Virus record (IMG/VR): IMGVR_UViG_3300010280_000146
DNA length: 10,110 nucleotides
Direction: 5' to 3' (one strand)
Origin: a virus
Lineage: Duplodnaviria; Heunggongvirae; Uroviricota; Caudoviricetes
Shown piece by piece: positions 314 through 5,997 of the stretch. A program made the translations under genes and the position numbers. Numbering within the stretch: position 1 is the first letter of the stretch; each line of letters starts with the position of its first letter. The notes beneath the pieces are model-generated. The model was given only the letters and a program-made list of their open reading frames with translations, was not told where the DNA came from and made no database searches.

Positions 314-1564
314 GTGCTTACCGATACAAAATTAAAAAACCTCAAGCCGCAGGACAAACTGTACAAGGTCTCCGATCGTGACGGGCTGTATGTAGCTGTT
401 CTTACGTCAGGCACGGTCTCGTTTCGCTACGACTACCGTATCAACGGTCGCCGCGAAACGCTGGTAATCGGGCAGTATGGGCGTGACGGTATCAGCCTGG
501 CAGAAGCGCGAGAAGAACTGATTGCTGCAAAGAAGTTGCTTAAAGCAGGCCAGTCACCGGCTGCGGCTAAACGTGACGGTATCAAAAAGATTCGTGGTGC
601 TGAGACGTTTGCGGTACATACCGACAGTTATATGAAACACGTCATCCTGGCTGAAAGTACCCGCGCAATGAAGCAGGCAGTGATCGACCGTGACATACTT
701 CCTGTTCTTGGCAACAAAATGATGGCTGAAATTACCACATCGATGGTTCGTGATTTGTGTGACCGGATTGTCGAACGCGGTGGCCGGGCAACAGCAGTGC
801 AGGCCAGGGAGATCATCAGCAGCGTATACCGTCACGCCAATGACCGTGGTCATGGTTTGTTTAATCCTGCAGCTGACATTAAACCTTCGTCTATCGCCAT
901 ATTTAAACCACGAGAGCGAACACTGACACCAGAAGAAATTGGCCTGTTCTTCCGCACGTTGGATGCCATTGGTGCTATGGGCACTATGAAAATGGCTTTA
1001 AAGCTGGTGCTTATCACTATGGTTCGTAAAGGCGAATTCACCAATGCAACGTGGGATGAAATAGATTTTAAAAAATGGACATGGACAATTCCTTCAGACC
1101 GCATGAAGGGAAGCCGGGCGCACGTTATTTACCTGCCTAAACAGGCACAGGATATATTGGTCGGGTTGCAGATGTGCGCTGGTGGAAGTGAATATCTGGT
1201 TCCTGGTCGTTACAATTTCCGGAAGCCATTATCTAATGCCGCGCTGAACTCTCTGATCGACAGAACGGTGAAAATAATAAATGAAGATGGTGAGCATATT
1301 CAGGACTTCACTGTACATGATATGCGCCGTACAGCCAGTACATTGTTGCATGAGGCTGGTTATCCTTCAGACTGGATTGAAAAGGCTCTGGCACATGAGC
1401 AGAAAGGTGTGCGCGCCGTATATAACAAAGCGGAATACGCTAGACAGCGCGCCTACATGTTGCAGCAGTGGGCCGATATGATTGATTCCTGGATTAACGG
1501 GGATCATACGGATCTGATTCCGTTCTCCCCGTCGAAGTTTGAGAAGTGGATGGCGGGGGAATAA
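314..1564 (+). CDS. int: Tyrosine recombinase / phage integrase, P4-type (N-terminal arm-binding DUF4102-like domain plus catalytic domain)
   Basis: 416-aa ORF with GTG start. N-terminus LTDTKLKNLKP...LYVAVLTSGTVSFRYDYRINGRRETLVIGQYG is typical of P4-like integrase arm-binding domains; C-terminal HDMRRT (HxxR box) and VRAVYNKAEY (catalytic Tyr region). Sits next to a host gene 3' end. Confidence 0.9.
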   Translation: MLTDTKLKNLKPQDKLYKVSDRDGLYVAVLTSGTVSFRYDYRINGRRETLVIGQYGRDGISLAEAREELIAAKKLLKAGQSPAAAKRDGIKKIRGAETFAVHTDSYMKHVILAESTRAMKQAVIDRDILPVLGNKMMAEITTSMVRDLCDRIVERGGRATAVQAREIISSVYRHANDRGHGLFNPAADIKPSSIAIFKPRERTLTPEEIGLFFRTLDAIGAMGTMKMALKLVLITMVRKGEFTNATWDEIDFKKWTWTIPSDRMKGSRAHVIYLPKQAQDILVGLQMCAGGSEYLVPGRYNFRKPLSNAALNSLIDRTVKIINEDGEHIQDFTVHDMRRTASTLLHEAGYPSDWIEKALAHEQKGVRAVYNKAEYARQRAYMLQQWADMIDSWINGDHTDLIPFSPSKFEKWMAGE

Positions 1565-1567
1565 CGT

Positions 1568-1762
1568 TTAATTATTCTGCTGATTTTCTTCCATCTCGGC
1601 TTCTGCTGCCAGTGATTCAATTTTATCTGCGAATATTGCTGACAGTGTTGCAAATTCAGCATCAGTGACAGCGGGAACAGGAACAAACCTGATCCCGCTG
1701 TGTGCAAGCATGTTTGCAGTTTCAAGGCATTTCCTTAAATCTGCTGGTGATGCCCTGTTCAT
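1568..1762 (-). CDS. Small hypothetical protein (64 aa), translationally coupled to the upstream methyltransferase gene
   Basis: Internal ATG of track ORF 1568..1882 at 1762..1760 forms an ATGA overlap with the methyltransferase stop (1761..1759). Product MNRASPADLRKCLETANMLAHSGIRFVPVPAVTDAEF... has an acidic tail. The track's N-terminal extension overlaps the methyltransferase in another frame and is rejected. Confidence 0.5.
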   Translation of the reverse strand: MNRASPADLRKCLETANMLAHSGIRFVPVPAVTDAEFATLSAIFADKIESLAAEAEMEENQQNN

Positions 1763-2409
1763 GCTGCACGCTCCCGTCCCTGGTTGTCTGTTGGTGACAG
1801 AGGAGCATTGCTGAATGCATTTGTTAATCCGCCAATATACAACGCGTATCCTGGGTGTAGTTGCACGGCCGGGTCTTCGCACTGATTACCCCAAACATCG
1901 AAGCCATGAGACGACTGGCGGGCGAACAGTTCAATGCGAGAAACATCGCCTAACAATTGCACAAGTTTTTCACGAACGATATCTGGTTTTCTTGAATGCT
2001 CAAGCCGCGGTGCGGTAAATGACTGAACGATCCCTGCATTAATGCGCGGAGGTAGTTTTCCCTTAACTGCAAACAGGCAATCTTCACTATTGGCGCGAGT
2101 CATGTGTCCCATACCCATAACCAGTTTATCTGGTTGTCGACTACCACATTTTATCCACGTGAAGCCCTTCATGGTCATCAGACGGAATCCCCAGGCTTCA
2201 ACAACTTTTAGCGCTTCGAGTGGTTGTGTTGGCACCCACCACATGGCCAACAGACAGTTTTCATCGGCCAAATCCCACACAGGAAGGCGGCAGATATCCA
2301 GCACACTCATAACCGGATATTTAAAACCGGCACCGCGATTACCATCTGCGGCTTTGTCCCGGTATACCCAGGGTGGATCTGCATAGATTAGTGTGTATTT
2401 CTTAGTCAT
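1759..2409 (-). CDS. MT-A70 family DNA N6-adenine methyltransferase (phage Dam-like, orphan)
   Basis: 216-aa ORF starting MTKKYTLIYADPPWVY; the DPPW catalytic motif near the N-terminus is characteristic of MT-A70-type amino-methyltransferases. No adjacent restriction endonuclease gene is visible. Confidence 0.85.
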   Translation of the reverse strand: MTKKYTLIYADPPWVYRDKAADGNRGAGFKYPVMSVLDICRLPVWDLADENCLLAMWWVPTQPLEALKVVEAWGFRLMTMKGFTWIKCGSRQPDKLVMGMGHMTRANSEDCLFAVKGKLPPRINAGIVQSFTAPRLEHSRKPDIVREKLVQLLGDVSRIELFARQSSHGFDVWGNQCEDPAVQLHPGYALYIGGLTNAFSNAPLSPTDNQGRERAA

Positions 2410-2701
2410 AAACCACCCCGCAACATCCTATACCGCTATAGTCGCCACGGCGAAGGCCGTTACCTTTTGTGATACATTGGTCCCTGCGAACCGCGATCCT
2501 TGCACGCTCAACATCACCAGAAGCAACATCCATACACTGAAGCCAAAGGTGAGCGGCAATGCGGAACTGCCCTTTTTTTTCTCTTTCAATCGCGCGTTTT
2601 TCGATCTCTATCGCCGCAGGAGTAACGGCGACAATCTTTGACGGACTGCGCATTGAAACCTTATTCATGTGATATTTTTCAAGTCGGCTTAACTTTCTCA
2701 C
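2402..2701 (-). CDS. Hypothetical protein; start uncertain (GTG 2701, ATG 2668 or ATG 2653)
   Basis: ORF ends in an 8-nt overlap with the methyltransferase start (GTTTATGACTAA), suggesting coupling. Charged region AIEIEKRAIEREKKGQFRIAAHLWLQ looks protein-like but the C-terminus is low complexity. No family recognised. Confidence 0.4.
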   Translation of the reverse strand: MRKLSRLEKYHMNKVSMRSPSKIVAVTPAAIEIEKRAIEREKKGQFRIAAHLWLQCMDVASGDVERARIAVRRDQCITKGNGLRRGDYSGIGCCGVVYD

Positions 2702-2810: not shown

Positions 2811-3059
2811 TCATGCAGCGTTGCTCACGGGACGATATACACGTTGCTGAACAGGAGGTTTTTTACCCTGGAACTCTGCTGGGCTTGCTGCCTGACGTTC
2901 ATCAAGCCAACGTTCAACTTCATCACGGTTCCATGCGCAGCGTTTATCGGTGATATACCAGCGTTTGGGAAATTCCCCTGCGCGCTCCATACGGTCGATA
3001 GTGCTCCATGACAGTGGCACCACCGCCAGGAGTTCCTTCTTACCTAATGCACCTTTCAT
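2811..3059 (-). CDS. AlpA/Xis-like excisionase-family DNA-binding protein (MerR-type HTH)
   Basis: 82 aa; LSWSTIDRMERAGEFPKRWYITDKRCAWNRDEVERWLDE fits the AlpA/excisionase HTH_17 pattern (STIYR...G.FP.P......W...E...WL). RBS AGAGG lies 6 nt upstream of ATG 3059. Confidence 0.75.
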   Translation of the reverse strand: MKGALGKKELLAVVPLSWSTIDRMERAGEFPKRWYITDKRCAWNRDEVERWLDERQAASPAEFQGKKPPVQQRVYRPVSNAA

Positions 3060-3108: not shown

Positions 3109-3990
3109 TTACATAGATGTTTCGTTTAATTCTTCCCGACGAACGCTGTAAACGTCGGTGGCTTTTGCCAGCAGTTCGTCATCATCTGAAAGTTTTTGTG
3201 CAATGTATTTGTAAGCCTTATCCAGTTCGGAGACAGTGCTGTAATTCATCGCTGCGCTGGTAAAGGCCATCAGCATTTCTTCTGGATCACGGCTATCCGC
3301 TTTACGCGTTTGCTCATCAGGCTTTTTCACTGGTTTAGCGTTGATCAGACTGTTCATTCCCGCAGCAGTGGTCGTTTGCGGAGTAATGTCTCGCTCAACG
3401 CGCGGTGCCGTTTCCTGTAATTCGTCTGGGGTGTAAACACCGAGAAGTACATCAGGAGCGTGCAGGCGAGCCCATCGTTTCGTGCAAAGATAGGCAAGTT
3501 GCTGGCGCGGATCCTGTTCCCACAATGGAGAGTTACGCACTCCGGCTTGCGCCATACTGATGGTAAGCTCACGGGGTTCTGCTTCTCCTTTAAGAACTGC
3601 TGACACAGTTACCGTCAGATTCGGTGATTTATCTGTTTTGCCGTTAACATTCGACCAGTCACCGCTCCAGCGATAATTCAGGCGTGTCGCTAGCAGGCTG
3701 GAAGAGGATACGACCGCGTTTACCAACTGTGCTTCGTAGCCTAACGTTCCGTTTACCACATGCGTTTTCTGCGCCACGGCGAAAGGGTTCATTCCCCACT
3801 GTGCCGCCTGCATGGTCACCGCCAGGCAATCGGCAGGTTTGCCTTCAAGATGTTTCGGTACAGTCGCTTTGCTTTGTGACATCAACTCCGCGAAACGCAC
3901 CAGTTGATTCATGCCATCGGGGCTGAAGATTGCCGCAGCAGTGCCCACAGTTGCGCCTGGTTGTGATGTGATTGCGATATCATTGCTCAT
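3109..3990 (-). CDS. Bet/RecT-superfamily single-strand annealing protein (lambda Bet-like recombinase)
   Basis: 293 aa; segments MQAAQWGMNPF, NSPLWEQDP...RWARLHAPDVLLGVYTPDE and ERDITP parallel lambda Bet motifs (QYGLNPW, TGPWQSHP...QCARLAFGFAGIYDKDE, ERDITP) as recalled from memory. ATGA overlap with the upstream exonuclease gene. Confidence 0.85.
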   Translation of the reverse strand: MSNDIAITSQPGATVGTAAAIFSPDGMNQLVRFAELMSQSKATVPKHLEGKPADCLAVTMQAAQWGMNPFAVAQKTHVVNGTLGYEAQLVNAVVSSSSLLATRLNYRWSGDWSNVNGKTDKSPNLTVTVSAVLKGEAEPRELTISMAQAGVRNSPLWEQDPRQQLAYLCTKRWARLHAPDVLLGVYTPDELQETAPRVERDITPQTTTAAGMNSLINAKPVKKPDEQTRKADSRDPEEMLMAFTSAAMNYSTVSELDKAYKYIAQKLSDDDELLAKATDVYSVRREELNETSM

Positions 3991-4808
3991 ACGTACATAT
4001 CCTGTTTACGTGCCCAGTCAGGGCGTTTAATAATTTCCACTCCGCCCCATTCATCGTTGATGCGGCATTCGTGGTAGGTATTCAGATCCCGGCGGAACAG
4101 AGCGTGCCCGGCATCGACATCTGGCGCATCCAGCTCGAACACGCGTACCGGATACCGACCACAATCAATGCTTTCGCTCACGGCAAGAAAGAAAAAACCA
4201 TGCGGCTGACCAGTAACCCTCATTGCGCCTTCGCGGTACATTGCGTCCTGCACGTGGTAGCGGAATTCCTCGATGTGGCGTGCAAAACGGTCCATATCCG
4301 CAACCTTTTTCACGTCGACGATCACGTTGTGCTCGTTCAGCCATTTGTCTGGACGAATTCGGCACAACTCACCCGTTTCTTCATCGTTCCAGTACATTGA
4401 TGCTTCGCAGTAACCAGGTGCTTCCAACATCCAGCGTGCCGCCGGATGAGCCATTGCGCTATCACGCATCAGCTCCAGTTTTCGCCACTGCTCGACATCA
4501 AGTACCGCAATACCCATATCCGTCACATCACGAAGAAATGCTTCTTCGTCAGCTTTACCTTGTTTTGTCCGACGATCGAATTTCGGTGAAACGATGAAGC
4601 GTTTGTCGAATTCTCCAGGTTCCAGAAGCAGGCAGTGCAATGCGGTTCCCATATCCAGTGCAGAATTTTTCTCTTCGTCTTCTGGTGCTGCCTGAATCCA
4701 TTTAAGAAGCGCCGGATTCTTGGCAACCATGTCCAGTTGCGACTTACTCACGCCGTCACCGGCGTGGTAGTCTTCGTTGCTGATGTCGAAATAAATTCCC
4801 GGTTTCAT
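3987..4808 (-). CDS. RecE-like PD-(D/E)XK exonuclease (exodeoxyribonuclease VIII-like; partner of the annealing protein)
   Basis: 273 aa; N-terminal GIYFDISNEDYH and the nuclease core RIRPDKW...VIVDVKKV (D...D/E-x-K) plus YHVQDAMY resemble RecE C-terminal-domain-type nucleases; directly upstream of and coupled to the Bet-like gene. Confidence 0.8.
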   Translation of the reverse strand: MKPGIYFDISNEDYHAGDGVSKSQLDMVAKNPALLKWIQAAPEDEEKNSALDMGTALHCLLLEPGEFDKRFIVSPKFDRRTKQGKADEEAFLRDVTDMGIAVLDVEQWRKLELMRDSAMAHPAARWMLEAPGYCEASMYWNDEETGELCRIRPDKWLNEHNVIVDVKKVADMDRFARHIEEFRYHVQDAMYREGAMRVTGQPHGFFFLAVSESIDCGRYPVRVFELDAPDVDAGHALFRRDLNTYHECRINDEWGGVEIIKRPDWARKQDMYV

Positions 4809-5293: not shown

Positions 5294-5321
5294 TAATTAT
5301 GCGTATCTGGTTTGATGTCAA
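5293..5321 (-). promoter_or_regulatory. Putative pL-like sigma70 promoter for the leftward recombination operon
   Basis: Minus-strand -35 TTGACA (plus 5316-5321, perfect consensus), 17-bp spacer, -10 AATTAT (plus 5293-5298); flanked by the two palindromic sites. Confidence 0.4.
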
Positions 5322-5412: not shown

Positions 5413-5997
5413 TTATTGTTTGTTTTTTTCGTTCTGGTTGATGACAAATTCAATGTAACTTTCGATCTTTGCCTTCTCTGTTTCAGGTAACAATGCGTAG
5501 CGCGAGCGGTCATAGTTGATAGTTGCAGGGTCATGCGGATGAATCAGTAGTTCATATCCGTGACGCCCGAATGCAGATGCAACATTCTCCAGGGTGGAAA
5601 TGGAAACGCTGACCTCATTGTTTAACAGGCGGCTTATTGTCACCTGGGCGACGCCGGATGCGCGGTGAAGTTTTCCCTGAGTTGAAAGGTCGCGGCTTTC
5701 ACTCATCCAGCGTTCCAGGTTGTGAGCTGCCAGCTGACCAATGTCGCTTGGGCCGACAGGCTGAAAACCTTCCTGAGAAAGCGAGCGATCGATATCAAGC
5801 CAGTTACGGGGTTTATTGGCGGCAGCTTCAATTTTTCGCGCAACCTGGTCGCCGATAACCTTCTTGCCAAGAGCCCAGCGGTTTACCAGATTTGCCTGAG
5901 TTCCAAGTTTTTCTGCCATCCGCGTCTGAACACCATTGAATTCACGGTCGATCAAGTCGTTGAGATTTTGCCTGCGGACGTCCTGGATACTTTTCAT
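5413..5997 (-). CDS. Tandem helix-turn-helix (two XRE-type HTH domains) transcriptional regulator; candidate prophage repressor
   Basis: 194 aa. First HTH around GVQTRMAEKLGTQANLVNRWALGKKVIGDQVARKIEAA, second around LHRASGVAQVTISRLLNNEVSVSISTLENVASAF. No LexA/S24 peptidase motifs seen. Placed like cI, divergent from a Cro-like gene, with its own terminator. Confidence 0.75.
   Translation of the reverse strand: MKSIQDVRRQNLNDLIDREFNGVQTRMAEKLGTQANLVNRWALGKKVIGDQVARKIEAAANKPRNWLDIDRSLSQEGFQPVGPSDIGQLAAHNLERWMSESRDLSTQGKLHRASGVAQVTISRLLNNEVSVSISTLENVASAFGRHGYELLIHPHDPATINYDRSRYALLPETEKAKIESYIEFVINQNEKNKQ

Follow-up and report, generated by a model that had tools for sequence, protein, structure and literature searches.

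Analysis of the 10,110-nucleotide (nt) stretch of IMG/VR virus record IMGVR_UViG_3300010280_000146, called the window below, showed that its MT-A70 methyltransferase (MTase) gene occupies a slot between the genes xis and int in which sister prophages carry methylases of different families. The MTase gene (minus strand, 1759-2409; 216 amino acids, aa) is flanked on the same strand by two small open reading frames (ORFs), a PerC-like one upstream (2402-2701; GTG start at 2701, 99 aa, PerC99 below) and an Orf63-like one of the DUF1382 family downstream (1568-1762; ATG start, 64 aa). All three were found at the coordinates given in a first-pass annotation of the same DNA. The region is made up of three separable parts: the PerC backbone, the swappable MTase slot and the optional Orf63-like gene. 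In the reading that we favour, to which a probability of about 55% is given, the MT-A70 protein is a phage-borne orphan DNA adenine methyltransferase, interchangeable in function with Dam-type enzymes and made from the early-left operon, its translation probably being started by ribosomes that terminate on PerC.

Retrieval anchored on PerC, and independent of the MTase, yielded 15 sister prophages; single-protein PerC queries returned only close relatives, and a broad PerC alignment was too divergent to serve as a locus query. The backbone of the 15 reads RecE-RecT-AlpA-(p35)-PerC-(DUF1317)-...-int-guaA, and an MTase was present in the int-proximal slot of every one, with its family confirmed by Pfam. 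The slot was filled by an MT-A70 protein in nine prophages, by a PF05869 Dam in four and by a C5-cytosine MTase fused to Dam in two. Identical PerC proteins were accompanied by different enzymes: P0094 stands beside Dam in one genome and beside MT-A70 in a second, and P0090 with either MT-A70 or the C5+Dam fusion. When the window was compared by BLASTN with the Dam-bearing relatives, homology extended up to the PerC stop (2402) and came back at 1553, inside the end of int. PerC and int are therefore backbone, and 1554-2401, which holds the MT-A70 and Orf63-like genes, is exchangeable cargo. In these alignments int forms the conserved flank on the right of the slot. The sister prophages constitute natural test pairs, the backbones being identical and the methylase the only difference.

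The start site of the MTase lies within the PerC gene. The last six codons of PerC (..GVVYD*) hold the Shine-Dalgarno (SD) sequence GGGGTGG as well as the ATG of the MTase, and the PerC stop is joined to the MTase start in the 8-nt overlap ATGACTAA at 2402-2409. The epsilon15-like junction reads GGGGTGGT(T/G)T ATGAC TAA and encodes ..GVVYD*, the lineage of the window having the form GGGGTGGTtT-ATGAC-TAA; a further variant is GGGGTGGCxGC ATGA. In lambdoid prophages the junction is GGAGGCGTACTCA ATGAC TGA, which encodes ..GGVLND*. As a consequence of the shared PerC 3' end, non-homologous downstream genes all start with MT(K/D/N).... In many epsilon15-like relatives it is DUF1317 that is coupled to PerC, with the MTase one to three genes farther on. 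The start-site device therefore belongs to the PerC 3' end and is not specific for MT-A70. A cargo hotspot was also seen between PerC or DUF1317 and the MTase (loci L085, L089, L091, L092, L093, L134, L140, L141 and L143). Its cargo comprises a DndB-like protein, a NUMOD4-HNH endonuclease, a weak sub-threshold PD-(D/E)XK-like match, DUF4406 and unknown proteins of 203 and 220 aa, and these may be defence or counter-defence genes.

A second lineage of PerC-methylase loci was found in lambdoid prophages of Lonsdalea, Acerihabitans, Buttiauxella, Dryocola and Dickeya and in related viral contigs, where PerC comes after the replication genes and before RusA. Their PerC proteins are 29-36% identical to that of the window. 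A DNA MTase follows PerC in 12 of the 13 loci: MT-A70 in L150 and L151 (overlapping) and in L161 (about 170 nt apart), a PF05869 Dam in L152, L157 and L159, a fusion of PAPS-reductase and Dam in L153 and L158, a D12-class Dam in L154-L156 and a C5+Dam fusion in L160. In the exceptional locus a fusion of a winged helix-turn-helix (wHTH) and PerC is followed by a Q antiterminator. In Dickeya ananatis (L164, 1680-3360) a D12 Dam, PerC and MT-A70 stand in a row before RusA, all junctions being 4-nt overlaps. In three genera the protein encoded upstream joins a MarR-like wHTH to a PerC domain; among five such fusions (L101, L103, L105, L133 and L162) MT-A70 is the gene directly next in four and the Q antiterminator in L162. 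Neither an interchangeable methylase slot nor a PerC-embedded start site common to two lineages was described in the literature searched, and the slot together with the conserved coupling of PerC to a methylase appear undescribed.

As to the enzyme itself, the first-pass annotation had recognized an MT-A70 adenine methyltransferase between xis and int. This is borne out by the match to PF05063 (78.5 bits against a cutoff of 23.9; residues 5-176 on profile positions 1-172 of 172) and by the catalytic motif YADPPWVY at residues 9-16, of which DPPW (residues 11-14) aligned with the DPPW of the best-matching solved MT-A70 chains. The closest solved structures were chains deposited as MT-A70 family proteins, and these ranked above METTL3. 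The protein belongs to PHROG 359 ('DNA methyltransferase') and, over its full length, matched a Type II MTase model of PADLOC that derives from REBASE (1e-76). It consists of the catalytic core only, without a target-recognition domain, plus a mosaic C-terminal tail. Selection was assessed for each gene in the phiV10-like viral contigs with a full-length alignment of it. The MTase was intact in 77 of 77 close relatives, with 65 synonymous and 35 non-synonymous variant codons, and the ratio of non-synonymous to synonymous substitution rates (dN/dS) was 0.05-0.11 against relatives that are about 25% diverged.

The MTase has as neighbours PerC, DUF1382, int, p35 and xis, with no cognate restriction endonuclease adjoining. 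That no such partner is visible had been remarked before, and profile searches (including Pfam, PHROG and PADLOC) likewise detected no restriction endonuclease in the 10-kb window and so no paired gene that would place the enzyme in a Type II restriction-modification (R-M) system. Apart from the RecE-like recombination exonuclease, the window has no nuclease. Orphan Dam enzymes of phages (PF05869 of the T1/VT2-Sa type; D12 class, PF02086) are found in the same PerC-adjacent or int-proximal slot in sister prophages and are, like the window MTase, orphan, early-expressed and without an endonuclease. They differ in being unrelated in fold and family, the window MT-A70 being of the circularly permuted beta class with an N-terminal DPPW, and a GATC specificity of the latter is what we infer.

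The DNA-methylase reading is preferred because, in two lineages, three other DNA-MTase architectures take the very place of the MT-A70 gene. The occurrence of unrelated, genuine DNA methylases at the same position beside an unchanged PerC is independent evidence for a role in DNA methylation. The reading is further preferred because C5 and D12 DNA MTases neighbour MT-A70 homologs in other phages (adjoining them in the three further loci L120, L121 and L123) and because of the full-length PADLOC match and of the GATC activity reported for a similar enzyme, M.EcoGV. According to the citation in one study, M.EcoGV methylates GATC in vivo on overproduction (cited in PMC10810198), and it is listed with GATC specificity in another (PMC6602927).

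Several observations weigh against this reading. The window has 35 GATC sites where 39 +/- 5 would be expected, which is neither an excess nor a deficit. Escherichia coli has a Dam of its own, and a GATC enzyme would be partly redundant. The replacement in the slot means that the MTases are interchangeable as cargo, which is no proof that they have the same substrate. Moreover, a characterized relative, the MT-A70 enzyme M.EcoPA8orf6770P (gp5) of the Shiga toxin (Stx) phage PA8, was alone nearly inactive on DNA or RNA in vitro and, with the product of the upstream, co-transcribed gene PNB-2 (gp6), forms a 1:1 complex that prefers 16S rRNA (PMC10810198). The two published views of this enzyme family, a Dam-like GATC DNA methylase and a PNB-2-dependent 16S rRNA methylase, are thus in conflict.

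In the mechanism that we propose, the operon would be transcribed from a promoter near 5300 on induction or infection. Ribosomes that finish PerC would then initiate the MTase, and those that finish the MTase would initiate the Orf63-like gene. The enzyme would N6-methylate adenines in phage and host DNA, most likely in a Dam-like manner at GATC, as the sources cited above report for M.EcoGV. Methylation would shield the phage DNA from restriction, reinforce Dam-dependent control of lysis and lysogeny, or both; anti-restriction or epigenetic methylation is the most likely role. PerC and the Orf63-like protein would act separately, the one as a transcription modulator and the other as a pro-lytic factor.

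The first-pass annotation could name no family for the two small proteins and had suggested profile searches with them; both families could be identified in this way. PerC99 matched PF06069 (30.1 bits, cutoff 22.6) and, over its full length, PHROG 868 (5.7e-62), and all its database relatives are named PerC family. Its similarity to the ANR family (NF033650) was weak (23.6 bits, under the cutoff of that family). The GTG start at 2701 is backed by the N-terminus KLSRLEKYH, which is kept in diverged homologs that start with ATG. PerC99 was intact in 77 of 78 phiV10-like contigs with 27 synonymous and 15 non-synonymous variant codons, and its dN/dS was 0.16-0.22 against relatives about 25% diverged. 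The Orf63-like gene was intact in 49 of 50 contigs (15 synonymous and 9 non-synonymous variant codons). Both small genes, on whose conservation the earlier proposal had depended, are thus real and subject to purifying selection. The AlphaFold2 model of PerC99 (30-sequence alignment, predicted local distance difference test score, pLDDT, 73) shows four helices; its C-terminal tail is disordered and coincides with the junction region. No helix-turn-helix (HTH) was found in this model or by Pfam, and a fold search of the PDB gave nothing significant (best E 0.5, MIT/TPR-like bundles).

The PerC-like protein is small, helical and prophage-encoded, as are PerC of enteropathogenic E. coli (EPEC), PchA-E of enterohaemorrhagic E. 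coli (EHEC) (PF06069) and ANR. In contrast to EPEC PerC and EHEC Pch, its subfamily is confined to prophages of Enterobacteriaceae (about 134 clusters), and it has an N-terminal extension (KLSRLEKYH) and a C-terminal tail (YSGI...GVVYD) of its own, the latter encoding the next start. For the characterized Pch genes no MTase neighbour has been reported. PerC and Pch are known mainly for virulence control, and the recurrent coupling suggests a possible unrecognized link to phage methylation.

Such a link is compatible with the DNA-methylase reading. It could mean, as a tentative possibility, that PerC and the MTase are a two-gene functional module in which PerC controls an orphan DNA MTase of any family, be it by the coupling, by promoter activity of its own or in joint methylation-dependent decisions. 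This would agree with the SD and ATG that PerC proteins of only 29-36% identity bear for the next gene in both lineages, with the DNA MTase found downstream in 15 of 15 epsilon15-like and 12 of 13 lambdoid loci, with its recurrence at two different genome positions (between xis and int, and after the replication genes) and with the Dickeya locus, where PerC lies between a D12 Dam and MT-A70 with all junctions overlapping. However, loci within a lineage share descent, which leaves effectively two or three independent observations. Furthermore, many of the epsilon15-like relatives couple PerC to DUF1317 and have up to two cargo genes before the MTase. Non-phage PerC genes, those on a Serratia chromosome and those of a conjugative element, had no methylase beside them, and a conserved flank that serves cassette exchange or recombination would yield the same pattern without any functional link. 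The characterized PerC and Pch proteins are regulators of host genes for virulence, curli and flagella, and a link to a methylase is not reported for them (PMC6265319).

A stronger form of this idea, which we consider doubtful, makes phage PerC a dedicated companion of orphan DNA MTases that uses the SD and ATG in its 3' end to couple whichever methylase occupies the slot and that controls or cooperates with methylation. By analogy it may be a functional counterpart of the R-M controllers, or a methylation-linked switch for prophage induction or host genes. R-M controller (C) proteins have an HTH fold, whereas PerC99 is without an HTH in the AlphaFold2 model and in Pfam. In a sub-variant PerC99 may, in the stead of PNB-2, redirect the MT-A70 to RNA.

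This leads to the unlikely alternative that the window MT-A70 is the catalytic subunit of a 16S rRNA methyltransferase in which the PerC-like or another phage protein stands in for PNB-2, methylation of the ribosome tuning spontaneous induction. The PA8 enzyme increases spontaneous induction and virulence (Gong, Chakraborty and Koudelka, NAR 2024; PMC10810198). A closely related Stx-phage methyltransferase has been tied to toxin release. Residues 1-192 of the window MTase show 81% identity to M.EcoPA8orf6770P (E 4e-124), and in PA8 it is the PNB-2 gene, overlapping the MTase by 4 nt from upstream, whose product directs the enzyme to 16S rRNA. The PA8 holoenzyme and M.EcoGV are also alike with the window in being orphan, prophage-borne and near int. 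As in PA8, a small upstream gene overlaps the MTase start, a DUF1382 gene (47% identical to the window copy) overlaps its 3' end, and the window enzyme too is a core without a target-recognition domain. In addition, wHTH-PerC fusions come directly before MT-A70 in Buttiauxella and Dryocola prophages, and in phage Tyrion a separate wHTH gene stands before it.

The window differs from PA8 in that PNB-2 (143 aa, a predicted wHTH) is replaced by the non-homologous PerC, and the two phages are of different types, Stx Sepvirinae and the podovirus Uetakevirus. PerC99 was considered as a PNB-2 homolog and discarded, as it could not be aligned with it by BLASTP or phmmer. No PNB-2 homolog was detected by phmmer among the ORFs of the window or in 40 diverse loci, a scan that matched PA8 only and did not include HK639. 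The C-terminal tails of the MTases diverge past about residue 180 (window ...PAVQLHPGYALYIGGLTNAFSNAPLSPTDNQGRERAA, PA8 ...PSIEMVPGIVKFLEKTNERKNDVDKGITS), and the C-terminal part of about 27 residues of the full-length isoform of E. coli that makes Shiga toxin (STEC), which is proposed to bind PNB-2 (PMC10810198), is not matched in the window MTase. The same PerC proteins occur with unrelated MTase folds, and PerC as a dedicated MT-A70 subunit was rejected on the ground that identical copies also sit with Dam or with C5+Dam. The slot is otherwise occupied by genuine DNA methylases, PerC99 is modelled without a nucleic-acid-binding fold, and even for PA8 the methylated base of the rRNA has yet to be named. 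A clear PNB-2 homolog was spotted by eye in HK639 (L128, 1412-2660; HK639_37, 142 aa), two genes upstream of a 45%-identical MT-A70; the pairing is therefore old and predates the Stx phages, and it is absent in the window. Of PNB-2, the ORF that precedes the MTase in Stx phage P27 retains only the last 11 residues.

The tail of the window MTase (window 1759-1830, residues about 193-216) extends some 19 aa beyond the norm of the family, which is about 197 aa ending in ..KTEAA. Its motif NAPLSPTDNQG is also present in a Kluyvera genome (L087), where it ends a separate ORF of 54 aa that lies downstream of the MTase, and this recurrence suggests a deletion or fusion junction. The idea that the type of tail tracks the upstream neighbour, as expected of docking to a partner, was not upheld, as the common tail '...PAVQLLPGC.V.V.KTEAA' was found with many unrelated upstream genes. 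In the genomes of 40 species with MT-A70s of 57-91% identity the neighbours were highly variable (NinB, DnaC-like, HNH, DndB-like and RusA).

A role of the three genes as a module for anti-phage defence, or as the toxin-like or modification-dependent one that the first-pass annotation had considered, is hardly credible: it could draw on nothing beyond the tight packing and the presence of a methyltransferase, while the small ORFs have no PADLOC match, the MTase matches generic Type II MTase models only, no nuclease, toxin or ATPase domain is present in the three genes, these do not co-occur as a set, and Orf63 homologs are characterized as pro-lytic developmental factors (PMC10869804).

The Orf63-like protein matched PF07131 with 105.2 bits over profile positions 1-60 of 60 and lambda Orf63 (PDB 8DSB) with an E of 8.5e-13 over residues 2-62, IRFVPVP being aligned with IRFVPIP. 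Lambda Orf63 is a dimeric pro-lytic protein of the exo-xis region, and invariant positions have been described for its homologs (PMC10869804). The window protein is a full-length homolog that has the conserved RFVPVP strand and is likewise encoded in the early-left operon near xis. It differs from the lambda situation, in which no MTase is present, in being the last gene before int and coupled to the MTase. The gene that follows the MTase in 80 near-identical phiV10-like contigs is DUF1382 in 50 and the NinI phosphatase in 25; in 4 there is nothing before int, and 1 was without a match to three reference proteins. In Klebsiella and Citrobacter relatives DUF1382 is upstream of the MTase, and of the types compared only the window/phiV10 and the PA8/P27 ones have it after the MTase. 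DUF1382 was for these reasons dismissed as a conserved partner of the MTase: it is replaced or missing in 30 of the 80 phiV10-like contigs, some relatives have it upstream, and 40 diverse genomes were without it. By its likeness to the lambda protein, it would be an optional developmental gene of the exo-xis type with a pro-lytic effect.

The view of the three genes as one coupled cassette could be maintained in part. The 8-nt overlap upstream of the MTase and the ATGA at 1759-1762, in which the MTase stop is joined to the Orf63-like start, are exact, and SD-like motifs (GGGAG, GGGGTGG and GAGAGGG) are present upstream of the starts of the three ORFs. But the coupling reaches on to p35 and xis, and the genes do not travel together. 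p35 (minus, 2698-2814), a hydrophobic ORF of 38 aa between xis and PerC that is annotated as the membrane protein PhiV10p35, overlaps PerC by 4 nt (GTGA) and xis by another 4 nt. Upstream of it lies xis (minus, 2811-3059), which encodes an excisionase/regulator of the AlpA family (PF05930, PHROG 66). Still farther upstream, RecT (3109-3990) and the RecE-like PD-(D/E)XK nuclease (3987-4808) are separate ORFs with a 4-nt overlap, and a further 4-nt overlap joins the RecE-like gene to orf104. From orf50 to the Orf63-like gene six of the eight junctions are overlapping. Overlaps are the norm in this operon and are therefore no mark of a three-gene unit; they are general operon packing, which runs through at least five genes (xis, p35, PerC, the MTase and the Orf63-like gene). 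p35 itself had 13 non-synonymous and 5 synonymous variants among close relatives, so that it is under weak constraint or perhaps no real gene.

A consensus scan was made of the minus strand, and an internal promoter or terminator that would divide the genes was not obtained. The only sigma-70-like minus-strand promoter in it was TTGACA-17-AATTAT at 5321-5293, a candidate early-left promoter by consensus match only, situated just downstream of a terminator-like hairpin at 5392-5373; from this site down to 1568 the scan gave no minus-strand terminator-like site. The hairpin and the promoter-like site set the early-left operon apart from a putative repressor gene on the same strand (5413-5997), whose product has two HTH regions (residues about 21-61 and 104-148). 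Structured RNA was not indicated by Rfam, which gave no matches, and repeats were at chance level only. On the other side the operon is convergent with int (plus, 314-1564), which encodes a P4-type tyrosine integrase (Pfam Arm-DNA-bind_3, Phage_int_M and Phage_integrase). The stops of int and of the Orf63-like gene (window 1564-1568) are 3 nt apart with no terminator between them. A 14-nt inverted repeat with a 6-nt loop is present inside the Orf63-like gene (1668-1701) and might influence the convergent transcripts.

The window belongs to a prophage of the phiV10/epsilon15 type (Uetakevirus) at the 3' end of guaA, its first 120 nt or so being the end of that gene. The segment is 98% identical to p32-p34 of Escherichia phage phiV10, where p32 is annotated as DUF1382, p33 as a DNA methyltransferase and p34 as a PerC-type activator. 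Genus, site beside guaA and gene order (DUF1382, MTase and PerC between an AlpA-type xis and int) are the same for PhiV10p32-p34, and no substantive difference from the window was seen. The genes have thus been annotated since phiV10 was sequenced, and an MT-A70 relative, lambda Orf63 and PerC/Pch have each been characterized already; an experimental study of the phiV10 or epsilon15 versions was not encountered in the literature searched. In epsilon15 (gp29-gp31) PerC is separated by a 35-aa ORF from the MTase, which is shorter (192 aa), and in place of DUF1382 there is a serotype-conversion gene. Downstream of guaA, the segment is present at 95% identity or more in prophages of 565 of 5426 complete E. 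coli genomes, that is in about 10% of them, and there too its genes already bear the annotations DUF1382, MT-A70 and PerC. For RecE and RecT the phiV10 record annotates a single fusion, whereas the window has two ORFs. Fusions were also seen among database proteins of the PerC region (the pair P0117/P0087): in one, the N-terminal half of PerC is joined to DUF1382 with loss of the MTase, and in a second natural deletion fusion p35 is joined to PerC. These two proteins show that rearrangement at the overlapping junctions is ongoing.

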